A stretch of DNA of 32,000 bases from Candidatus Methanoperedens sp. Its GTDB lineage: Archaea > Halobacteriota > Methanosarcinia > Methanosarcinales > Methanoperedenaceae. Shown here in pieces: positions 13,931-26,868 of this stretch. The stretch lies in contig JAQUQX010000014.1 in NCBI GenBank assembly GCA_028715885.1, positions 6,038-38,037 of the forward strand, given 5' to 3'. Numbering within the stretch: position 1 is the stretch's first letter; every line of letters begins with the position of its first letter. A program made the position numbers and the translations under genes. The notes under the pieces were generated by a model. The model did not search any database, was not told the DNA's origin, and worked only from the letters and a program-made list of their open reading frames with translations.

Positions 13931-14626
13931 TTATGAGCTAATAATCTGTTTGGAAATTATCTCTTTTTCCAGTTTCCCTTTAAAGAACACATAAACCTCT
14001 ATATCCCCGCCATTCTCGTACTTTCTCATCATCCGGTCGTACATCTGCCGGCTGTTCCTGAGATTCTGTTTCCTGAAGAAATCTTTGATTGAATGCATGA
14101 ACCTGAGTTTCTGCCCGAGAAAATCCAGTTCATATTTTTTTACTTCCCTTGCTATCTCTTTGCAGGTCTCATCGCTTATATCATTGTGGTACAACCCGTG
14201 CTGGTTTAAACCGCTTACCTGCCTGAAATCAACATTACCCTCCTCGTCTGCTTCCCTGTGAAGCATGTAGGGATATATTTTGCAGATTTCAGGGCGAATT
14301 TCATAATGTTTGCACCTGACGCCTGTATAGAATATGCAATCGCCGCGGGGTTTATTTTTCAGGGCATAACCCATTACATAGAACCTGCCCAGTTCATCGC
14401 AAAAATCAAAATACGGCGCAGGGCGCAGGAAACCGCTGCCAAGAGCTTCGATTATTCTTGCCGCATCGTCATCAAGGAGAAATACGTGGTCGTTGAACCC
14501 GCTGGTGCAGCATTTGCCGCAGCAATCGCATCCGAATCCCACTTCGCGGATTATATCTAGGAACCGTTCATCCGGGAAGGATGCTACGCATAGTATCTCT
14601 TTTTCGATATCTTCCGTTTTTATCAT
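13931..14626 (-). CDS. YkgJ-family cysteine-cluster protein (CxxCxxCC, putative Zn/Fe-chelating domain)
   Basis: The track start at 14638 is TTG; ATG at 14626 is preferred. The motif CDCCGKCC plus further Cys residues (CIFYTGVRCKHYEIRPEIC) is typical of the UPF0153/YkgJ family. Confidence 0.7.
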   Translation of the reverse strand: MIKTEDIEKEILCVASFPDERFLDIIREVGFGCDCCGKCCTSGFNDHVFLLDDDAARIIEALGSGFLRPAPYFDFCDELGRFYVMGYALKNKPRGDCIFYTGVRCKHYEIRPEICKIYPYMLHREADEEGNVDFRQVSGLNQHGLYHNDISDETCKEIAREVKKYELDFLGQKLRFMHSIKDFFRKQNLRNSRQMYDRMMRKYENGGDIEVYVFFKGKLEKEIISKQIISS

Positions 14627-14748
14627 GGCTTGGGTCAAAATGATTCGTTGAACTATGGCGTTATTATCTATTTAATTTATAGGGTCTTTTTTCTGTACGC
14701 GGTTTTTTTTTCAATATCGCCAAAAGAACATATAAAATAATGATAAAA

Positions 14749-14849
14749 AAAACGATAAATTATATAAAGCATCAGGTCAAGAAGGTATTGCTTTATAAAA
14801 CGGGAAAAACGGGACGTATAGCCAAAACGGATAGGAAAAATTTGAATAA
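14749..14849 (+). promoter_or_regulatory. AAAACG-box cluster and TATA-like element upstream of the heptaheme cytochrome gene
   Basis: Boxes are AAAACGATA (14749..14757), a tandem AAAACGGGA x2 (14797..14814) and AAAACGGATAGG (14824..14835), followed by TTTGAATAA (14841..14849). A TATA-like TTTATAAAA lies at 14792..14800. The start codon is at 14875, preceded by a GAGGT SD. Confidence 0.45.
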
Positions 14850-14874
14850 TTACGATTAGCGAGGTATAAGAAAA

Positions 14875-15831
14875 ATGCTGTTCACAAGCAAAAACCAACA
14901 CGTATCGTTGAAAAAAATAGTCATCTTGATTACAGTGATTGCATTCTCTTTATTAATTACGACCGTTTCCGCCCAGGAAGACGTTTCATGCTATCACTGC
15001 CACACTCAAGTGGTCAGTGAATTCAGGAATAATATCCATTACCAGAAAGGTTTTTCCTGCGACGATTGTCACGGTGGAAAAGCCCAGCCCAATACAACAG
15101 TGATTTCTTATACAGTAATGTCGGGAGATTTTATCGGCAGACCAACAAGAAGCAATATAACAAACATCTGCTCAAAATGCCATTCCCAGGAGGCAAAAGA
15201 TTACAAGATGAGTATTCACTGGGAACAGATTGCAAAAGGTCATCCAGAGGCTGCAACTTGCACCGACTGTCATGGAATCCATGAAATTCGGGCAATAAGC
15301 GACCCCAACTCCTCATCAAACCACCAGAATAGTCCGGCAACATGCGCGAAATGTCATTCCAACAAGGAACTAATGAGCGCATGGTATTACGGGATTAAAA
15401 CTGATAGATTTGATACATATAAAGAATCCTTTCACTGGAAAGCGTTGAAAAAAGGTTATGCTCTGGTTGCAACGTGCTCGGACTGCCACGGGAACCACAA
15501 CATAAAACCCCACGAAGACCCCAAGTCCAGCACATACCCGGACAATCTTCCCAAAACCTGCGGCAAGAATAACTGTCATCCTGATGTCCAGTTTGATGCC
15601 AAGATAGCCGCAGGGCTTGTCCATGATAAGGAGTCGCTTCACACAGGAGAGCTGGTTTTCAATAAGACAGGCATGAACCCACAGATGAAAGACTATTTCA
15701 TCGGTCCATTCGACCTTGCTTACTGGATAGCGTTCTTTTTCAAGATATTGACAACCGGGGTTATAGCGGTCTTTGCAGGTATGGTTTTCCTTGATTTTCT
15801 ATCACGGGTTAAAATCCACAGGAGATGGTAA
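14875..15831 (+). CDS. membrane-anchored multiheme c-type cytochrome (6 CxxCH + 1 Cx4CH)
   Basis: 318 aa. N-terminal signal/anchor (IVILITVIAFSLLITTVSAQ). Heme motifs are CYHCH, CDDCH, CSKCH, CTDCH, CAKCH and CSDCH, plus CGKNNCH. A C-terminal TM helix (YWIAFFFKILTTGVIAVFAGMVFLDFL). Confidence 0.9.
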   Translation: MLFTSKNQHVSLKKIVILITVIAFSLLITTVSAQEDVSCYHCHTQVVSEFRNNIHYQKGFSCDDCHGGKAQPNTTVISYTVMSGDFIGRPTRSNITNICSKCHSQEAKDYKMSIHWEQIAKGHPEAATCTDCHGIHEIRAISDPNSSSNHQNSPATCAKCHSNKELMSAWYYGIKTDRFDTYKESFHWKALKKGYALVATCSDCHGNHNIKPHEDPKSSTYPDNLPKTCGKNNCHPDVQFDAKIAAGLVHDKESLHTGELVFNKTGMNPQMKDYFIGPFDLAYWIAFFFKILTTGVIAVFAGMVFLDFLSRVKIHRRW

Positions 15832-15832
15832 A

Positions 15833-16582
15833 ATGGCCCGGCAAAAATTAGTGGAAGTTTCTGACTCGAAAGCAGGAGATGGTACAATGGGTGAAATTTA
15901 TTTTAAAAGGTTTACATTCAATCAGCTTGCACAGCACTGGATAATGATCGGGACGTTCATGCTGTTGGTAGTCAGCGGCATGCCTCTTAAATTCCCCGAC
16001 GCATGGTGGTCTCCTGTAATTATCAATTTCCTGGGCGGATTTGAAATGAGGACGCAGATACACCATGCAGCAGGCGTTGGAATGGTTCTTCTCGGGATAT
16101 ACCACGTTGTTTATCATGTTTTTGTTGATAAGGATTCACTGCTTGACAGGAAAGTTTGGCCGACATTGAAAGACGCCAAGGATTTCTGGCAGACAATATT
16201 TTATTACCTCGGAAAAGCCGAACACCCGAAATTCGGACGATATAGCTGGAAAGAAAAATTCGATTACTGGGGGGCATTCTGGGGAATGGTTATGTTGTGC
16301 ATAACTGGACTTATAATGCTGTTTCCCTTCAAGGCAATGGAATTAATTCCCTATGCATACGTGCATCTTGCAACCATTGTTCATACAGACGAGGCATTAC
16401 TTGCAACCCTGTTCATTTTCATAGTCCACTGGTGGAATGTTCATTATAGCCCAGAAGTATTTCCCATGTCAAAAGCATGGATAACGGGCACCCTGTCAGA
16501 GGAACAGATGAAGCACGAACATCCGCTTGAGTATGAAGAGATTATGAGGCAGATGCAGGAAAGGGACGAAAGGCTCTCTTGA
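15833..16582 (+). CDS. diheme cytochrome b-type membrane subunit (FdnI/HydC/PhsC-like)
   Basis: The track ORF is trimmed to ATG 15833, which lies 1 nt after the upstream stop with GGAG at 15821. Four or more TM helices carry conserved His residues (QHWIMIG, HHAAGVGMVLLGIYHVVYH, HTDEALLATLFIFIVHWWNVH). These fit b-heme ligation in the formate dehydrogenase gamma / Ni-Fe hydrogenase cytochrome b family. Confidence 0.75.
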   Translation: MARQKLVEVSDSKAGDGTMGEIYFKRFTFNQLAQHWIMIGTFMLLVVSGMPLKFPDAWWSPVIINFLGGFEMRTQIHHAAGVGMVLLGIYHVVYHVFVDKDSLLDRKVWPTLKDAKDFWQTIFYYLGKAEHPKFGRYSWKEKFDYWGAFWGMVMLCITGLIMLFPFKAMELIPYAYVHLATIVHTDEALLATLFIFIVHWWNVHYSPEVFPMSKAWITGTLSEEQMKHEHPLEYEEIMRQMQERDERLS

Positions 16583-16594
16583 TTGGGGTGGGTA

Positions 16595-16618
16595 TTTTTT
16601 TTATTGATATCTCTTTTT
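16595..16618 (+). terminator. oligo-T tracts (T8 and T5) just after the cytochrome b stop; archaeal-type terminator candidate
   Basis: A T8 run lies at 16595..16602, 13 nt after the TGA at 16580..16582. A T5 run lies at 16614..16618. Archaeal RNA polymerase terminates at oligo-T. Confidence 0.5.
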
Positions 16619-16761
16619 ATTTACCACCAAGACGTCGAGGCATGGAGAGTTTTTTAAATAGCTCTGTGGTATGAAACTATGATGAGCCTTAGGGACACAC
16701 ATAAAGTATGAAAAACCGTAAGCTTGAACATATAGGTTTAAGTTTTTCATTGGAAAAAATC

Positions 16762-16836
16762 AACAACTAACTCGTACGAACTCATGCTGCCGGTGTTCAT
16801 ATTAGTTCGTTGTTATCTATGAACCACAGTTCATAG
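16762..16836. repeat. two adjacent hairpin-forming inverted repeats in the convergent spacer between the two cytochrome operons
   Basis: An imperfect 20-bp inverted repeat (16762..16781 with 16795..16814) matches at 16 of 20 positions. It is followed by a perfect 8-bp stem CTATGAAC-CACA-GTTCATAG (16817..16836). Confidence 0.5.
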
Positions 16837-16938
16837 CCGACTCTGTGCGTATAACCTCTGCGTGATACTTTTCCCTGATTTCTCTCGTTAGCTATTGCCA
16901 GCGGCAGGCAATATCATGAGAGGGAAATTAAGGGGAGA

Positions 16939-18045
16939 TTACTTTCCTTTTTTCCCGCTTGCTACGCCTGTGGCATGGCAGTCCGAGCAGAACGCAGGCT
17001 GGTGGCAGTCGCTGCATATCTTGCCTATTAGAACCTGTGTCTTATGCGTTTTCAACCAGTCACTGGGGTGTTCCTGACTGTGACAGGTTTCGCATAGATT
17101 CTCCTTTATCTGCGGAGTATGCTTTACATTGGAGTGACAGTTGTAACATGCAATCTTATTATTAGTGACGTGGTTTTTATGCACGAAACTGAAGTCATCG
17201 TATTTTTCAACCCTTTCCCTGATATTATGACATGAATAGCATTTCTCCTTAGGTACAATATCATTTGCACCGGTTGATATGTTGATATGGCATGTCATGC
17301 ATTCAGCCCCGCGGCTAATATGACTTGAATGATTGAAGTTTGTATAATTTTTATGTGTTTGCTTTGGCGGACCGTGACAGGACGGGCAGCCGGATATTGA
17401 GGTATTGCCAGGCACATTTCTGAAGTGACAGGTGAAACATGATGATGTAGTTACCACTAGATGTCCTTCATCCCTCTTGGCGAATGCCGGATGGCACTGG
17501 TTGCATGAAGGGTCAGAAACGGACTGGTGCTCTTTCATGCCGATAACAAGCATAGAATGGCAGCTTGTGCATGTTAATCCGATTCCCCTCTTGGGTTGAA
17601 GCAAATGGTTTTTGTGACTGAAATTGACTCCAATATAACCAACATCTGAAGAGAATATGCGCTTTTCATGGCAGATAAGACAGTTATTATCCATGACTTT
17701 TGCATATAGTTTCCCCGAATATTCTTCTACTGTGGTTTCATAACTGTAAAATTGCATGAGCCCGTTAATCTTGCCTTTTATATGACCTATCAAACCCGGT
17801 TCGTAATGGCATTCAACGCATCGGACATCATTATGGGAAGACGTTCGCCATGAGTCATAATATGGTCTCATTATATGGCAATTTTTCCCGCAGAATGCAG
17901 GATTCTCAGTTATGTCAAGCATCTTTTCAGTGACAACCAATGCTGCAGAAAGCATGACAATCAATACTATTATAATCGGAAGCTTATGCGCTGAAATCCA
18001 GTTCTTAACAGCAGTCGTAAGTGATATCTTTTCCATAGACTTCAC
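16939..18045 (-). CDS. NapC/NirT-type membrane-anchored multiheme cytochrome, extended (12 CxxCH + 1 Cx3CH)
   Basis: 368 aa (GTG 18045; an alternative ATG at 18036). An N-terminal TM helix is followed by TENPAFCGKNCHIMRPYYDSWRTSSH and then CVECH. This resembles the NapC/NirT/CymA quinol-dehydrogenase N-terminal module (FCxSCHxM...S.H). Eleven further CxxCH motifs follow. It abuts the upstream cytochrome gene with no gap. Confidence 0.88.
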   Translation of the reverse strand: MKSMEKISLTTAVKNWISAHKLPIIIVLIVMLSAALVVTEKMLDITENPAFCGKNCHIMRPYYDSWRTSSHNDVRCVECHYEPGLIGHIKGKINGLMQFYSYETTVEEYSGKLYAKVMDNNCLICHEKRIFSSDVGYIGVNFSHKNHLLQPKRGIGLTCTSCHSMLVIGMKEHQSVSDPSCNQCHPAFAKRDEGHLVVTTSSCFTCHFRNVPGNTSISGCPSCHGPPKQTHKNYTNFNHSSHISRGAECMTCHINISTGANDIVPKEKCYSCHNIRERVEKYDDFSFVHKNHVTNNKIACYNCHSNVKHTPQIKENLCETCHSQEHPSDWLKTHKTQVLIGKICSDCHQPAFCSDCHATGVASGKKGK

Positions 18046-19020
18046 TCACCGTTTTCTTATTAAGTACAATATCGCAAAAATTCCCAGAATTAATGCCATT
18101 CCAATGGCTGGCGTACGCGGCGGCACCGTAGGTTCAACTCCGGACACCCTGTATTCGGCTTTCTTAGCCAAATCAATCCCGTTCTGGATTTGTTTGTTAA
18201 AATCCTTCAGGTTAAACCCGTGCCATAACGAAGGAATATCATTCATGACTGCCTGTGCCTTATCCAGGTCAGCCTGGGCGGTGGAGACGTCCATGCCTTT
18301 CGCTTTTGCCCCGGCAACGGCATCTTTAGCTTTTAAGAATTCTTCCTGGAATTCTTTTTGCATTTCAAGCGCCTGTTTTGCATCATTTGGGACGCTTGCC
18401 GCAGCAATCTGGTCGTTTGGATTATGGCAAACACTGCACAGGTTAGTTAGTTCGGATGCTTTGAGCACCTTAAAAGTGTGAGGTTTATGACATGTAATGC
18501 ATGATGGGGCACGGGATTCGGCTTTCATTCTCTGGTAGTGCATTGTATTCTTGAAATGCTCAAGTTCATCTGAATGACATTTTCCGCAGGTATCGGGTAT
18601 GTTTTTGAAATAAATGGTGCTGTTGGGGTCATTTACACCCTTCATCACGGCATGAGCCCCTTGTTCTGTTTTTACATTCGGGTCCCCGCTATGGCATGAG
18701 TCGCAGGTGACATAATATTTTGAATGAATCGAATCAGACCACTGCTGGAAGTTATTAGTAGCTCTTTTCCTGATGACATCTTCATGACATTCCAGTGAAC
18801 AGGATATATTTCTTTCAGTGTGATTCAATCTTATTTCATTAAAACGGCTCTGCTCATCCGTAAAAGGAGATAATGTCTTGTGGCAGTCCACACATGAATT
18901 ATTAAGAGCGTCTAAATGCACCGCTCCTGCTGGCGCAATAAACATGATAAAATATACAATTAATATCGGTACAATTCTCAAATCGAACATAATGTGCAGT
19001 TTTTTAGTTTTTGGCGTCAT
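18046..19020 (-). CDS. multiheme c-type cytochrome (5 CxxCH + CSLECH) with a helical C-terminal domain and a C-terminal TM anchor
   Basis: 324 aa. Signal peptide. Heme motifs are CVDCH, CSLECH, CDSCH, CGKCH, CITCH and CSVCH. The C-terminus is PPRTPAIGMALILGIFAILYLIRKR. It is a paralog of 21624..22583, at roughly half identity over the heme domain by eye. Confidence 0.9.
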   Translation of the reverse strand: MTPKTKKLHIMFDLRIVPILIVYFIMFIAPAGAVHLDALNNSCVDCHKTLSPFTDEQSRFNEIRLNHTERNISCSLECHEDVIRKRATNNFQQWSDSIHSKYYVTCDSCHSGDPNVKTEQGAHAVMKGVNDPNSTIYFKNIPDTCGKCHSDELEHFKNTMHYQRMKAESRAPSCITCHKPHTFKVLKASELTNLCSVCHNPNDQIAAASVPNDAKQALEMQKEFQEEFLKAKDAVAGAKAKGMDVSTAQADLDKAQAVMNDIPSLWHGFNLKDFNKQIQNGIDLAKKAEYRVSGVEPTVPPRTPAIGMALILGIFAILYLIRKR

Positions 19021-19074
19021 TTCTCGTTTTCACCGTGTTTATAATTCGAATCATCAATATTTCAACGCAGAACA

Positions 19075-19086
19075 CCTATCCGTTTT
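19075..19086 (-). promoter_or_regulatory. AAAACGGATAGG box (minus-strand sense) upstream of cytochrome gene 18046..19020
   Basis: The reverse complement of CCTATCCGTTTT at 19075..19086 is identical to the 12-mer at 14824..14835. It is in the same orientation relative to its downstream gene and 55 nt upstream of ATG 19020. Confidence 0.4.
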
Positions 19087-19137
19087 TTATTCTGCCTTTG
19101 GGGGTCAATTTGATGAGTTGATACAATAAATAGCTTA

Positions 19138-20322
19138 CTATTTATCCGGATTTCGCTCGGGTTCTTCTTCCATGTCCTTCCATGGCGGAAGGATATACGT
19201 TACAACTATCAGGATAATAAACGGAATAGTCAATATCACAATCGCGGGCAAGACGCCTTCTTTGCTAAAGAAAACCGGGACGTATGTAAGCGTTCCACTA
19301 AGGCTCTTGGATATCTCCTGTCCTCCGATTACCACATTCCACCGCATTGCGAAAACGCCGATTAGAACAAAAACAGATGAGATTGATATCATAATCATTT
19401 TGAGGGTTTCACGGTTCTTTATCATGCCTACCAGGAGGAGTAGCACGAACGGGATGAAGATACCCATTGTCAATTGCACTCCGTAAAAGGTTGTAGCGAT
19501 TTTATCCGAAAGCAGCCTGTTTATTATCTCGATTTCCTCAAGCGATTCGTATTTCATGCTGATAATCTCAAGCATTTCCAAGGTCACATCTAATATCAAG
19601 AAAATCCACAGATAATGCGCGAGTGAATGAAGACATTTGTGGTCGATGGCATGTTTCCGAAGCTTCATTGCAATAATATATAGTAAAATCAACAGTGCTA
19701 TGCCCGACACAATGGCAGACATAAGGAATATGAGGGGCATGAGGGGAGTTGACCACCATGGATTGGCTTTAATCCCGCCAAATATGAAACCTACATAGCC
19801 ATGCAGGAAAGCGGCTGACGGGATACCAATGATGGCAAGTCTCTTTGCGAGTTTTTCGTCATCGTGCAGCGCTTTTTCAGATATGTCATATGAAAAAAGT
19901 GCAAGTGCGGAATATAACAGTTCTTTCCATCCTCTGGAGTTAAGGGCATTTTTGACAATATCTTCCCTGAAAGACAGCCATATCTCAAGCACTACCACAA
20001 TCAAATAAAATGAATAAATATACCCGAATCCCGACATTGCAGAGGTTACATGGGGAGTAAACATGATTTCAATGCCGCGCTCCGGACGCCCGAGATGCGT
20101 GAGCAGAGGCATCGTAGCGACAAGCAGGAAAGATAAAGCGGTAAGAAGTGCAAATCTTGCCACCGGTTTAATTTCTTTTTTACCAAAAACATGATACAAC
20201 GATGATGCTATGAATGCCCCGGCTACAAGACCTGTGATATACGGGTATAATACAATCAGTATGCTCCATTGTATTTCAGCTTCATTGGGATACACATATC
20301 CCCAGATTAAATTCTCCATCAT
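19138..20322 (-). CDS. NrfD/PsrC-family integral membrane quinone-interacting subunit
   Basis: 394 aa with about 10 TM helices. The N-terminus WGYVYPNEAEIQWSILIVLYPYITGLVAGAF is typical of the NrfD/polysulfide reductase family. A 4-nt overlap with the FeS subunit gene. The stop is TAG immediately followed by TAA. Confidence 0.85.
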   Translation of the reverse strand: MMENLIWGYVYPNEAEIQWSILIVLYPYITGLVAGAFIASSLYHVFGKKEIKPVARFALLTALSFLLVATMPLLTHLGRPERGIEIMFTPHVTSAMSGFGYIYSFYLIVVVLEIWLSFREDIVKNALNSRGWKELLYSALALFSYDISEKALHDDEKLAKRLAIIGIPSAAFLHGYVGFIFGGIKANPWWSTPLMPLIFLMSAIVSGIALLILLYIIAMKLRKHAIDHKCLHSLAHYLWIFLILDVTLEMLEIISMKYESLEEIEIINRLLSDKIATTFYGVQLTMGIFIPFVLLLLVGMIKNRETLKMIMISISSVFVLIGVFAMRWNVVIGGQEISKSLSGTLTYVPVFFSKEGVLPAIVILTIPFIILIVVTYILPPWKDMEEEPERNPDK

Positions 20323-21089
20323 CGCACTTCCCTGTCCAATCCGACATAGTACACCTTGGGTTTCGTTCCAAGGTCGGGTTTCAGGACATTGATTCTCTCT
20401 TCATCCAGGATTTTATTGACCGCACTGTCAGGGTCTTTCAGGTCGCCGAATTTGCGCGCCCCCACAGGACATGCCTGGACGCATGCAGGCAAAAGACCTT
20501 TTGTAATCCTGTGGTAGCACCATGTACATTTGTCGGCAGTACGCTTTTCCGTGTTAAAATACCTCGCGCCGTAAGGGCAACCCTGGATGCAATACCGGCA
20601 TCCGATACAGTAATCATAATCTACAAGGACAACGCCGTCTTTTGTCTCATACGTAGCCCCGACCGGACAAACCTGGACGCATGGCGGATTATCGCAATGA
20701 TTGCATATTTTAGGGACGTAGAAAGCTTTTTTGATATCCTCAGCCGGGATGTCATCGGTAAACCCATCGATGCTTCCGTTGGGTGAATCTATTTTCACTT
20801 CCCCACCTCTAAGTACCCTGTATCTTTCAACCCATGTCCTGTAAACCGGTTCGTCAAAAGGAACTTTGTTTTCAAGCTTGCAGGCATTTGCGCATCTTCC
20901 GCACCCGATGCATTTTTTGGTATCAACCACAAAACCCCAGTAATGTTCATTCCAGTCGTATTCACCTTTTGGAGATTCCCCTGCCGCGCTGCCGTTTGTG
21001 ACGAGGGACTCGATAACAGCAGTGCCTGCCGCCGCTCCGATAATGACCCTGCATCCGATTTTAGTGAATTCGCGCCTCGATATTTCCAT
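20319..21089 (-). CDS. TAT-exported 4x[4Fe-4S] ferredoxin subunit (NrfC/PsrB/HybA/ActB-like)
   Basis: 256 aa. A twin-arginine signal, MEISRREFTKIG. Four Cys clusters: CIGCGRCANAC, CNHCDNPPCVQVCP, CIGCRYCIQGCP and CTWC...CVQACP. Confidence 0.88.
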   Translation of the reverse strand: MEISRREFTKIGCRVIIGAAAGTAVIESLVTNGSAAGESPKGEYDWNEHYWGFVVDTKKCIGCGRCANACKLENKVPFDEPVYRTWVERYRVLRGGEVKIDSPNGSIDGFTDDIPAEDIKKAFYVPKICNHCDNPPCVQVCPVGATYETKDGVVLVDYDYCIGCRYCIQGCPYGARYFNTEKRTADKCTWCYHRITKGLLPACVQACPVGARKFGDLKDPDSAVNKILDEERINVLKPDLGTKPKVYYVGLDREVR

Positions 21090-21101
21090 GTTCTCTCTCC
21101 G

Positions 21102-21551
21102 TTATATGAACCACGGCTTATGCGGGTTATGACAGTAAGTGCATTTCAGGTTTTCACCGTGCGTTTCAGGGTCTATCTGCGGGAAATTCGCAGGTCTGGC
21201 TGCCCGTTTGAAATGGCATAAACCGCAATAGTCTCTCGAATCGTTTGCTGGCGGCGGCATTATCCTTACATTGCCCACATGTTCTTCGGAAGGACCATGA
21301 CACGTTTCACAGTTTACGGTTTTATGCCTGTCCTTTGCCCATACTGAATATATGGTTTTGTGACAGTTCTCTTCACCGCAGGCTGCCGACCCTGCATATT
21401 CTACCTGGAAGTTTTTAATTTCATTGACAGAGTCGCCCCTGTACCATCCATATTGCCCGAAAGATTGCGGGACAACTAACGACCGTACGAAAATAAAAGC
21501 AATTATCACAAGCGCCAGTAACGTAAATGCTCGTTTCAGGTGTGGCTGCAT
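21102..21551 (-). CDS. small membrane-anchored tetraheme cytochrome (3 CxxCH + 1 Cx4CH), c3/ActA-like
   Basis: The track ORF starts at ATG 21593. ATG 21551 is preferred because GGTGAG lies 6 nt upstream and it yields MQPHLKRAFTLLALVIIAFIFV, an N-terminal anchor. Heme motifs are CGEENCH, CETCH, CGLCH and CTYCH. Confidence 0.85.
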   Translation of the reverse strand: MQPHLKRAFTLLALVIIAFIFVRSLVVPQSFGQYGWYRGDSVNEIKNFQVEYAGSAACGEENCHKTIYSVWAKDRHKTVNCETCHGPSEEHVGNVRIMPPPANDSRDYCGLCHFKRAARPANFPQIDPETHGENLKCTYCHNPHKPWFI

Positions 21552-21623
21552 TATTTTCTCACCATTTAATAATAGAGGTTCTCTCCCGTTCATAAATCGT
21601 TTTTGCCATTGCTTTATAGTCCT

Positions 21624-22583
21624 CTATTTCTTTCTTATAAGATACATTACAGCCAGCAGTGAAATTATTCCTGTCAAGCCAACAAATCCAGGTGTTTTAG
21701 GAACCGATGTCCTGGTTGGTGTGTGGGATGGTTTTACCATCTCTTCTGCTTTCTTGACTTCCTTGCTGGCTGAATCTATTTCATCCCCGAAATGCGTGAG
21801 ATTGAATTCATGCCACATAGGCGCAAGACCGCCCAATGTTTTTAGCGCATTATCCGTGTACGCTTCAGCCTGCGTTACATCTGTTCCGTTCTTCTTAGCC
21901 CAGAAAATATCCTGCCTTGCCATTTCGATATTGAATTTCAATTTATTTACTTTCATGAGCATATCCTCCGCCTTGAGAGGGATGTCGTACGGTGCTACTT
22001 TTTTATACACTGAATGGCAGTTTCCGCAGACTGTCCTGAAATCCTCGGGATTCATGACCGTGAACGTATGCGGTACATGGCAGGTTGTGCATGTCGGCGC
22101 AAGTTTCAGGGCTTCAAGCCTCTTGAAATGCGTGCTGTTTTCAAAATTAGCAAGTTCCCCTGAATGACATTTTCCACACGTTTTTGGGACATTAGTATAA
22201 TAGACCGGGCTTTCAGGGTCGGTATTATTCCTGAAGTTTTTATGCGCCTTCTCTTTGGTGGCTTGTGCGGGGTCTCCTCCGTGGCAGGCTTCGCAAGTAA
22301 CTCCTTTCAGGGCATGGAGTGATTCAGACCACTGCTGGTAATTTGCAGTGGCAAGCGATCTGACTCTCTCTTCATGGCATTCAAGAGAACATGTAACCTG
22401 TCTTTCAAGGTGCTGGATTCTAATCTGGTTAAACTTCTTTTGCTCTTCAATAAAAGGAGTTAATGTCTTATGGCAATCTATACAGGAATTTTCAGAAGCA
22501 TTCGCCTGCGGGATTAAAAATAAGACAAATCCTGCTAATAATAAGGATGTTATTAATATTTTATTAAATGATTCCACTCGCAT
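21624..22583 (-). CDS. multiheme c-type cytochrome (5 CxxCH + CSLECH) with a PGF-CTERM-like C-terminal sorting signal
   Basis: The track start is GTG 22607. ATG 22583 gives the signal peptide MRVESFNKILITSLLLAGFVLFLIPQANA. Heme motifs are CIDCH, CSLECH, CEACH, CGKCH, CTTCH and CGNCH. The C-terminus is PTRTSVPKTPGFVGLTGIISLLAVMYLIRKK. The stop is TAG. Confidence 0.88.
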   Translation of the reverse strand: MRVESFNKILITSLLLAGFVLFLIPQANASENSCIDCHKTLTPFIEEQKKFNQIRIQHLERQVTCSLECHEERVRSLATANYQQWSESLHALKGVTCEACHGGDPAQATKEKAHKNFRNNTDPESPVYYTNVPKTCGKCHSGELANFENSTHFKRLEALKLAPTCTTCHVPHTFTVMNPEDFRTVCGNCHSVYKKVAPYDIPLKAEDMLMKVNKLKFNIEMARQDIFWAKKNGTDVTQAEAYTDNALKTLGGLAPMWHEFNLTHFGDEIDSASKEVKKAEEMVKPSHTPTRTSVPKTPGFVGLTGIISLLAVMYLIRKK

Positions 22584-22593
22584 TTTATTCAAA

Positions 22594-22648
22594 CCTTCCG
22601 TTTTCACACATACGTTTTTACCTTCTATCGTTTTAAACCTATCGTTTT
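22594..22648 (-). promoter_or_regulatory. four phased AAAACG boxes upstream of the minus-strand cytochrome operon
   Basis: In minus-strand sense the boxes are AAAACGATAGG (22648..22638), AAAACGATAGAAGG (22634..22621), AAAACGTATG (22618..22609) and AAAACGGAAGG (22604..22594). Spacing is 14/16/14 nt. They are followed directly by TTTGAATAA (22593..22585) and ATG (22583). A TATA-like TTATATAC lies at 22683..22676. Confidence 0.45.
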
Positions 22649-22754
22649 TTAATTACCTTTTGAACTATTATTTTGTATATAAGCTTTTGGTTTTGTAGAT
22701 ATTGTCAATTTGGGGGGATATATTTAACTATCTTCTCCACCATATAATATCCTG

Positions 22755-23078
22755 GTGAATATGGACAAAGAGACTTATAAATGTCCGAAATGTGGAAGTA
22801 ACGATAGCATTTGGCGGGGTTACAGGTATAATGAATCGGGGGAAAAAAGACTGAGAAAATGCAAGAATTGCGGTTCAAAATTCACACCAGATGATGGATT
22901 TTTAAGACGGCGTTATCAGAAAGAACACATTGTAGAGGCGGTCTCTCTTTATCAAAGAGGATTATCGCTAAGCAAAGTAAAAGATCACATGTGGCAGTAT
23001 CATGGAGTAAAAGTTTCTCGATGGATGATTCTTTTATGGTGGCGGGATTATTCCACGTTGATTGATAAATTCACTTAA
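22755..23078 (+). CDS. transposase-like zinc-ribbon + HTH protein (N-terminal module of IS1/IS6-type transposases, COG3677-like); no DDE catalytic domain
   Basis: 107 aa. The zinc ribbon is CPKCGS...CKNCGSKF. The HTH-like segment is EAVSLYQRGLSLSKVKDHMWQYHGVKVSRWMILLWW. It ends where the catalytic domain would normally begin. Only 81 nt remain before the convergent gene. Confidence 0.6.
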   Translation: MNMDKETYKCPKCGSNDSIWRGYRYNESGEKRLRKCKNCGSKFTPDDGFLRRRYQKEHIVEAVSLYQRGLSLSKVKDHMWQYHGVKVSRWMILLWWRDYSTLIDKFT

Positions 23079-26115: not shown

Positions 26116-26868
26116 GTGTTTACAAAAAGATGGTTGGTCATTGTATTCGTACTTGTAACCAGCCTCGCTGCCGTAGCGCAGGCGGCGACCCTGCACGGCA
26201 CTATTTACGAATGGTCGGATTTTGAAAAGCCTCTTAAGAACGTGATAGTCGAAATCGGGGATAACTCAACAAGAGTTCAGTACAAGATTTCAACAACGGG
26301 CGAATATAACTTCACCCTTTCCCCGGGAAATTATTCAATCAAGGCAAAATATTATCGCAATAATATCCTCGAATTAACCGGTGAAGAGAATATCCAGATA
26401 GAGAAAGCAGATGAGTCCAGAGAGTTCGACATCCTGCTTTTCCCGCCAACTGAGCAAGAATATCAATATCTTGGAGATATAAACCTGACCCGCGAAATGG
26501 ATATAAAAAGCGAATATGATATGAATTATTACATGACTATCTTAATTTTAGCGCTCTTGGCTATCGTTATTTTCTATTTGTTTAAGAAGAAAAAAAATAC
26601 GGCAAACAAAACAATTACAAATGAACTATATCCGCAACCGCCTGAAAAAACAATTGAAAACCCGGGAGAGCTTCCCGAAGACCTCAATGAGATTTACGAG
26701 CTGATACTGAAAAAAGGCGGGAGAATAACCCAGAAGGAGCTAAGGAAAGAAGTGAAATACGGGGAGGCGAAGGTCAGTCTGATGCTGGACGACCTGGGGG
26801 AAAGGGGTTTGATCAAGAAAATAAAAAAAGGACGCGCTAACATTATAATTGCTGAAGTCAAAAAATAA
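26116..26868 (+). CDS. single-pass membrane protein: extracellular carboxypeptidase-regulatory-like beta-sandwich domain + cytoplasmic winged-helix DNA-binding domain (COG2512-like)
   Basis: 250 aa with a GTG start. Signal peptide ...SLAAVAQA. The segment GTIYEW...GEYNFTLSPGNYSIKAKYY resembles CarboxypepD_reg-type folds. The TM segment is YYMTILILALLAIVIFYLF. The C-terminal wHTH is ELILKKGGRITQKELRKEVKYGEAKVSLMLDDLGERGLIKK. Confidence 0.6.
   Translation: MFTKRWLVIVFVLVTSLAAVAQAATLHGTIYEWSDFEKPLKNVIVEIGDNSTRVQYKISTTGEYNFTLSPGNYSIKAKYYRNNILELTGEENIQIEKADESREFDILLFPPTEQEYQYLGDINLTREMDIKSEYDMNYYMTILILALLAIVIFYLFKKKKNTANKTITNELYPQPPEKTIENPGELPEDLNEIYELILKKGGRITQKELRKEVKYGEAKVSLMLDDLGERGLIKKIKKGRANIIIAEVKK

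Follow-up and report, generated by a model that had tools for sequence, protein, structure and literature searches.

In Methanoperedens, alternative cytochrome modules link the oxidation of methane to nitrate, iron, manganese or electrodes, and a locus in which the genes of such modules stand together raises the question of whether its transcription units share a regulatory signal and, if so, at which level that signal would act. The locus considered here is a menaquinol:cytochrome c gene island of a Candidatus Methanoperedens genome (2.09 Mb, 78 contigs, 44% GC), the heptaheme protein of which has relatives that all bear the name Candidatus Methanoperedens, and by "the window" we mean the whole stretch of DNA that was analyzed, 32,000 nucleotides equivalent to C14:6038-38037. 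The genes downstream of the boxes described below correspond to menaquinone:cytochrome c oxidoreductase clusters of the Methanoperedenaceae catalogued by Leu et al. 2020 (PMC7327174), namely NrfD/FeS/MHC and cytochrome b with a 6-7-heme MHC; transcriptomes in the same article have the expression of these clusters differing by electron acceptor, and its passages returned by a term search mention neither a cis-element nor a regulator for them. Our literature searches likewise found no description of an AAAACG motif and no transcription-start map for Methanoperedens. The features of the island are collected in Table 1.

Table 1. Coordinates of genes, boxes and predicted promoter and leader elements in the window.
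Feature	Position in window	Strand	Remark
Heptaheme cytochrome and cytochrome b genes	within 14875-22607	+	
Hexaheme-1, tetraheme, 4Fe-4S protein, NrfD, hexaheme-2 and 12-13-heme NapC/NirT-like protein genes	within 14875-22607	-	
AAAACG	14749, 14797, 14806, 14824	+	sequence check
TATA AAATTATATAAAG of the heptaheme/cytochrome b unit	14757..14769	+	27 nt ahead of first box
Heptaheme box 1, AAAACGGG	14797..14804	+	heptaheme leader
Heptaheme box 2, AAAACGGG	14806..14813	+	9 nt past box 1
Heptaheme box 3, AAAACG	14824..14829	+	fused in the window to GGATAGGA, giving the 12-mer
Exact 12-mer AAAACGGATAGG	14824-14835; 19075-19086	+; -	
GGATAGGA module	14829..14836	+	heptaheme leader
TTTGAATAA	14841-14849; 22585-22593	+; -	
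SD GAGGT of the heptaheme gene	14861..14865	+	ATG at 14875
Inverted repeat GCAGAA ... TTCTGC around the hexaheme-2 box	19067..19095	-	possible hairpin with the box in its loop
Single AAAACGG box, here AAAACGGATAGG	19075..19086	-	hexaheme-2 leader
TATA-like TTTATTGTA, probable internal promoter (predicted)	19122..19130	-	8 nt past NrfD stop
Single AAAACG between hexaheme-1 and tetraheme genes	21598..21603	-	sequence check; likely tetraheme start ATG 21551
SD GGAAGGT, abutting last hexaheme-1 box	22593..22599	-	ATG at 22583-22581; orthologue alignment
Four-box AAAACG array of hexaheme-1 (22643-22648, 22629-22634, 22613-22618, 22599-22604)	22599..22648	-	14/16/14 nt spacing; conserved in orthologues
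BRE/TATA AAACCAAAAG-CTTATATACA of the hexaheme-1 operon	22674..22693	-	alignment of 12 orthologues plus 20 orthologues

Three further properties of the genes and of the assembly were noted. Hexaheme-1 has a PGF-CTERM match that falls under the Pfam cut-off. The 12-13-heme gene most likely starts at ATG 18036, not at the GTG 18045 of the ORF list (window 18034-18055, minus strand); its Shine-Dalgarno (SD) sequence, GGTGAGTGA, overlaps the hexaheme-2 stop TGA (18048-18046), and its orthologues all open with ATGGA(T/A)AA. The assembly, at 95% estimated completeness, contains neither a 16S rRNA gene (RF01959) nor mcrB (PF02241), and because the 16S rRNA is missing we took the anti-SD sequence from congeners.

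A sequence-only reading of the window had proposed that one AAAACG(G)ATAGG box recurs upstream of the cytochrome transcription units, and every copy it listed was found in its place. One explanation, that an A-rich word has come up repeatedly by chance in spacers that are AT-rich, is in keeping with the frequencies of the shortest words under a first-order Markov model of the genome: the bare hexamer AAAACG is observed 1517 times against 1510 expected, and TTTGAATAA 60 times against 60 expected. We also rejected a genome-wide leader motif, since, genome-wide, AAAACG is not commoner in the -100 to +60 zone of genes than its 29 permutations. Against chance stand the longer word and the arrays. 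The claim that the 12-mer AAAACGGATAGG recurs beyond chance was borne out, with four genomic copies against 0.33 expected under the same model; nine matches with up to two mismatches lie in the window against 3.3 expected, a number that was reached in 0 of 100 shuffles. Clusters of at least three AAAACG on the same strand with gaps of at most 30 nt number three in the 2.1-Mb genome, against a rough Poisson estimate of ~0.05 for noncoding DNA, and two of the three stand before cytochrome operons in the window, in the upstream regions of the heptaheme and hexaheme-1 genes. Comparable clustering (at least three such clusters) is found for 24 of 1563 hexamers of similar frequency, many of whose repeated words resemble codon repeats (CAGCAG, GCTGCT) when judged by look rather than by location. 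Finally, conservation of the boxes in orthologues refutes chance as their source, and we consider that explanation exceedingly improbable.

Conservation in orthologous promoters had been set beforehand as the refuting test, and the boxes are kept in 20 to 33 congeners and in a second genus. We compared hexaheme-1 with 19 orthologues from congeners, at 67-84% protein identity, and an alignment-free footprint returned AAAACG as the top conserved hexamer of the leader, with 55 copies in 19/19 orthologues. The orthologous upstream regions open with a near-invariant AAACCAAAAG-TATATATA, the BRE/TATA itself reading as a near-invariant AAACCAAAAGnTATATATA in the 12-orthologue alignment, and the first AAAACG follows 26 to 31 nt past the TATA in 13 of 16 of them. 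Each leader carries one to five boxes (at least two in 18/20) at a modal spacing of 14 to 17 nt, and the spacers between boxes diverge freely. The last box, which is either a near-invariant AAAACGGAAGG(T) or AAAACG-N1-3-TAGG, begins 20 to 21 nt ahead of the ATG in 15/20 orthologues, and by this fixed position at -20/-21 it is fused to the Shine-Dalgarno sequence. The hexaheme-1 orthologue of the second genus of the family (one genome) is preceded by four boxes in a matching layout.

The heptaheme/cytochrome b leader repeats this arrangement with a different spacing. Its TATA is kept as AAATTAT[AT]TAA[AG]G in 33/33 orthologous upstream regions, and the layout across 33 genomes runs from the TATA through 25 to 30 nt to two AAAACGGG placed 9 to 12 nt apart, then through 8 to 35 nt to GGATAGGA, and from there through 25 to 35 nt to the SD GAGGTA and the ATG. 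AAAACG is among the top hexamers of this leader (33 copies in 17/21 orthologues), and the tandem pair of boxes is kept genus-wide; a third box occurs in few relatives only (G002, G013, G021), and the SD GAGGTA is kept in 11/21 orthologues. The copy at 14749 had also been read as a box, and we no longer regard it as one: it flanks the BRE/TATA and is retained in one sub-clade only. The same holds for TTTGAATAA as a shared partner of the boxes, given its expected frequency and its lack of conservation in heptaheme orthologues.

The leader of hexaheme-2 carries a single box. In aligned orthologues the TTTAT of its TATA-like element is invariant and most of the remainder is kept (TTTAT[TC]NNN); five further genomes also have the TTTATTG core. 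The box, AAAAACGG(G/A)TA, lies 35 to 45 nt past TTTATTGTA, and its AAAAACGG is invariant in 10 orthologues and also in G048, G058 and G001. Around it the CAGAA ... TTCTG arms of an inverted repeat are conserved: 79% of cells pair, against 26-50% in slid controls, with one compensatory change and four G-U changes, and this covariation is nonsignificant, 45 of 500 shuffles equaling it. The box claimed for the tetraheme gene is present in the window; its conservation is weak, with AAAACG in 9/19 orthologous intercistronic regions and at varying positions. Two other AAAACG copies lie nearby. The one at 18050, considered as an SD-abutting box inside the operon, was rejected because it is the codon pair for the C-terminal Lys-Arg of hexaheme-2 and differs between orthologues, and the one at 19025 lies inside an SD-ATG spacer.

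The orthologues also changed our view of the box itself. In place of a single AAAACG(G)ATAGG unit there are two separable modules, AAAACG(G) and GGATAGGA, which stand 8 to 35 nt apart in most orthologues, and the 12-mer of the window is, by this comparison, a fusion of the AAAACGG and GGATAGGA modules. GGATAG occurs in 20/21 orthologous heptaheme leaders. Copies of GGATAGGA in the source genome are enriched between genes (34% intergenic versus a 16% baseline), and at many loci they stand 1 to 17 nt ahead of start codons. The 16S rRNA of congeners ends in ...GGAUCACCUCCUAA (also read as ...CCUCCUAA), whose UCCUA pairs with UAGGA, and the GGATAGGA module is thus partly Shine-Dalgarno-like. UAGGAGGUGA, found in both copies of the 12-mer on C25, is likewise anti-16S. 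We rejected GGATAGGA as a perfect anti-16S sequence, since its complementarity is limited to UAGGA(GGUGA), and its position is uneven: 38 nt from the ATG in the heptaheme leader, directly after the TATA before the EF-2 gene. As separate observations, (T)TTGTGGATAGGATAGGA or CATGGATAGGATAGGA has three intergenic copies with no obvious downstream gene (C2:49548-49560, C6:21456-21468, C37:2303-2315), and AAAACGGATAGGATAGGA recurs in G042, G020 and G049, 8 nt before a small ORF.

How far does the signal extend beyond this island? The reading of the boxes as a general cytochrome regulon did not survive a count over the 23 multiheme genes of the source genome (at least two CxxCH motifs each): at least two boxes precede only 4/23 (-200 to +60), the other 19/23 having fewer, and most cytochrome leaders of the genome have no boxes. 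Of the four, three lie in the window, and the fourth, on C4, encodes an 11-heme protein. On C42, the third array of the genome stands before genes for a small membrane protein and a B12-radical-SAM protein. Arrays or AAAACGG...GGATAGGA composites in congeners precede cytochromes of 11, 6, 6, 4 and 11 hemes and also members of a 480-aa family, a conserved 65-aa protein and secreted proteins, and congener boxes are found as well before a protein with a chemoreceptor-like N-terminus (by look). Cytochromes are therefore over-represented among box-bearing genes, and the set is not cytochrome-specific, because boxes also precede noncytochrome genes. At ~10 unrelated loci in the genus the noncoding arrays are nearly throughout in sense orientation to the downstream ORF; for one array (L024) no downstream ORF was found. 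The source genome holds no array of five or more boxes; longer arrays with no obvious ORF exist in other genomes.

Several elements came to light alongside these loci. The remaining exact copies of the 12-mer lie outside the window at C25:24170-24182 (-) and C25:27424-27436 (-) (L130), in a duplicated element of ~170 nt whose copies are 81% identical and which consists of a TATA, AAAACGGATAGGAGGTGA (with 10 nt of complementarity to the 3' end of 16S rRNA), an ATG-TGA, a hairpin of nine perfect base pairs and a run of five T; it contains no long ORF and has no Rfam match at E<=1, and its layout is one that a small RNA or an attenuator-like leader could have. The 480-aa family has six paralogues in the source genome (C33:3725-12914, which is L128, plus C22 and C20). 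Its members are often neighbors of cytochrome genes, and four of the six are interleaved with a 7-heme gene and with a 6-heme/cytochrome b pair. It occurs in 1 to 11 copies per genome in 49/49 Methanoperedens genomes, has an N-terminus that is ribbon-helix-helix-like by eye and gave no Pfam, NCBIfam or PDB sequence match; some copies have AAAACGG and GGATAGGA in their leaders. A palindromic element of ~90 nt, which contains ACGGAT three or four times together with the complementary repeats (GAACACGGAT ... ATCCGTGTTC), occupies five intergenic loci (C3:14651-14723, C6:6797-6820, C19:6233-6266, C38:564-587 and C52:7238-7262), and judging from its sequence could be MITE-like or a structured RNA.

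One lineage has lost the boxes. In the M. nitroreducens genomes G041 and G043 (those of loci L060 and L057, respectively), the AAAACG core is gone from three leaders: 0 to 1 copies remain in the hexaheme-1 leader and 0 in the heptaheme leader, and in the hexaheme-2 leader the box has changed to AAAATAGA / AAAACAGA. The loss did not extend to the TATA boxes, to the arms of the inverted repeat or to GGATAGG, and the leaders stay A-rich. Across 20 genomes the box counts of the hexaheme-1 and heptaheme leaders are correlated (Spearman 0.64, p = 0.002, by a statistic that ignores relatedness). Change of the same hexamer at three unlinked leaders in one lineage implies a shared factor, and this joint loss, counted as one evolutionary event, is hard to explain otherwise than by a common trans-acting reader of the boxes.

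Candidates for such a factor were checked phyletically, and none of them (the 480-aa family, a wHTH gene and a YkgJ-like gene) passed. The 480-aa family is present in all 49 genomes, box-less ones included; the wHTH/DUF7343 gene (26116-26868) is retained in the box-less lineage; and the YkgJ-like gene at 13931-14638, which is oriented divergently from the heptaheme gene, lacks an M. nitroreducens orthologue but is absent from G008, G011 and G015 too, all three of which bear boxes. The zinc-ribbon ORF divergent from hexaheme-1 (22761-23078, plus strand) was rejected as IS-like by look and nonsyntenic elsewhere. It encodes 105 aa with a zinc ribbon and a helix-turn-helix-like region, has a second copy on C55 that is 88% identical and is absent from this position in all other species; these features point to a probable insertion-sequence component, not a regulator.

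Conserved A-rich repeats could also exist in the absence of any specific recognition, as tandem duplications born of slippage and kept by descent or because an unstructured A-rich leader aids translation. Short satellites are exceptionally abundant in Methanosarcina (PMC6749651), and Methanosarcinaceae-like genomes are full of A-rich tandem repeats of 13 to 19 nt (PMC6749651). The tandem repeats of Borgs are described as perfect, of recent origin and fast-evolving, and host genomes are reported to be virtually free of them (PMC9879509). The boxes resemble the repeats of Borgs and Methanosarcina in being A-rich on the coding strand, in units of 13 to 20 nt, intergenic and found in the same order or in Methanoperedens-associated DNA; they differ from Borg repeats in being imperfect, in keeping only a core of 6 to 7 nt and in being shared, as orthologous arrays, by the genus and by a second one. 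Perfect tandem versions do occur in some congeners, the genus-wide pattern is only ~2 times as frequent as its reversed control, and in the Methanosarcinaceae-like genomes of the order the AAAACG pattern has ~432 matches against ~147 for GCAAAA, ~234 for AAAAGC and ~90 for CGAAAA, so that AAAACG arrays, although very common there, are only 2 to 5 times above these three control hexamers. Because Methanosarcina is already satellite-rich and this excess is small, we make no claim of an order-wide element.

Slippage nevertheless sits poorly with how the leaders have changed. The hexamer is kept where the rest of the unit has diverged, between orthologues of 67-84% protein identity and in two genera; the lone hexaheme-2 box, which lies outside any repeat, is still invariant; and in M. 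nitroreducens the CG core was lost jointly at three loci with A-richness kept. The leaders also fold no less stably than shuffled controls, and thus the sequence itself has been retained, not composition alone. We regard slippage with no specific recognition as very unlikely. The evidence instead points to the boxes being a conserved, previously undescribed cis-element, a shared regulatory signal of some electron-export cytochrome genes. As a side observation from the same survey, the apparently orthologous loci L184 and L186 of two Methanosarcinaceae-like genomes (G135 and G152) consist of a hairpin-rich conserved segment followed by 6 to 9 tandem units that share AAAACGG(A/G)A, with unit lengths of 14-15 nt versus 17 nt; neither has an ORF within 300 nt, and by their sequence they could be repeat-bearing noncoding RNAs.

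At which level would such a signal act? The TATA noted upstream of the first box proved to be conserved and 26 to 31 nt away, and because the first box follows at that distance, the arrays lie within the predicted transcript. The suggestion that the box sits at or just after the transcription start is upheld to the same extent, the boxes being sense-oriented and downstream of a conserved TATA, with the start itself predicted. Archaeal repressors usually bind at or just downstream of the transcription start, and an array of DNA operators, at which a transcription factor at or just past the start blocks RNA polymerase recruitment or early elongation, would explain why each of the three units has its first box at ~+3 to +20 from the predicted start and why the TATA-to-first-box distance is conserved. 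The C25 copies, which place the box between the TATA and the predicted start, and the L024 array, which is 10-nt-phased and upstream of a TATA-like sequence, also fit an operator, and the coordinated loss in M. nitroreducens is compatible with any shared factor. The arrays, however, extend to +65 and reach the SD; the boxes follow one another at 9-12, 14-17 or 19 nt, a variable spacing without helical phasing; they are direct repeats without dyad symmetry; and they are in sense orientation at nearly all of the ~10 loci (the exception, L024, having no downstream ORF). The neighboring wHTH gene is, moreover, kept in the box-less lineage. DNA operators are in our judgment the main rival reading, less likely than not.

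The reading that we tentatively prefer, with somewhat less than even confidence, is that the boxes form an element of the 5' leader RNA that is single-stranded and has several sites. We counted in its favor the phylogenetic footprint, the position of the boxes, the SD fusion, the sense orientation, the unphased spacing, the hexaheme-2 arms, the co-loss and the rarity of arrays. Neither stable nor conserved structure was found in the leaders: against shuffles they fold with z = -0.5, +0.6 and -0.9, unlike structured leaders, RNAalifold predicts 0 pairs for the hexaheme-1 and hexaheme-2 leaders and Rfam 15 gives 0 matches at gathering score over the whole window. The boxes would therefore be single-stranded. 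We counted against this reading that the heptaheme and hexaheme-2 boxes lie 60 to 80 nt from the SD, a distance at which they could not occlude it directly; that the covariation of the hairpin arms is nonsignificant and the leaders yielded no conserved RNA structure; that the placement of the C25 and L024 boxes would suit action on DNA; that the candidates checked yielded no binding factor; and that the co-loss counts as a single event.

Under the leader-RNA reading, the signal would be common to at least three units, those of heptaheme/cytochrome b, the hexaheme-1 operon and hexaheme-2. The boxes would be transcribed within an unstructured, A-rich 5' leader that begins a few nucleotides upstream of the first box, and each would be a putative single-stranded site for one trans-acting factor; an RNA-binding protein is a likelier candidate for it than a small RNA with CGUUUU. 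Several copies would permit cooperative or multivalent binding, and occupancy would alter translation initiation and/or mRNA stability; in hexaheme-1 the last copy directly adjoins the Shine-Dalgarno sequence. The transcription start, action at the level of RNA and the existence and nature of the factor are all matters that we infer.

Two families of known systems offer a measure for these readings. The archaeal start-site operators of MDR1 in Archaeoglobus fulgidus (three operators) and of NrpR in Methanococcus maripaludis represent the first, and the known operators of archaeal repressors have palindromic sites or a fixed spacing and do not extend beyond the start region. The boxes resemble the MDR1 and NrpR operators in presenting multiple sites from the predicted start onward, downstream of a BRE/TATA. 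They differ from these in being direct repeats at 9 to 19 nt that run to the SD, and neither dyad symmetry nor fixed helical phasing, the marks of an archaeal operator, is found in them. The second family is bacterial: CsrA/RsmA sites are multiple GGA motifs in bacterial 5' leaders, one of which overlaps the Shine-Dalgarno sequence. CsrA is a bacterial protein that is not known from archaea.

The likeness to CsrA/RsmA leaders would lie in several short, predicted single-stranded motifs at variable spacing in a leader, in a small regulon that shares the motif, in the abutment of the last hexaheme-1 copy on the SD and in the hexaheme-2 copy that may sit in a hairpin loop; the motif here is AAAACG(G), not GGA. 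Multiple motifs with one at the SD, the signature of Csr/Rsm leaders, are found before hexaheme-1, where GGAAGGT at -21 is joined to the last of four boxes, and not in the heptaheme and hexaheme-2 leaders, and no CsrA-type decoy RNA with many boxes was found in the source genome. A Csr-like posttranscriptional system in Methanoperedenaceae, and perhaps in other Methanosarcinales, in which an RNA-binding factor acts on single-stranded AAAACG(G) leader repeats, with a regulon centered on extracellular-electron-transfer cytochromes and lost in M. nitroreducens, is accordingly a speculation that we hold to be doubtful.

No genetic system is known for Methanoperedens. A shared, conserved motif combined with a natural "knock-out" lineage gives a handle on finding the regulator of module choice, and the motif could predict co-regulated modules in metagenome-assembled genomes and provide a basis for reporters in Methanosarcina. 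Should the boxes act in RNA, they would be among the very few sequence-defined archaeal translational operators known, and if a Csr-like system does exist in these archaea, its factor would set the output of each menaquinol:cytochrome c module.
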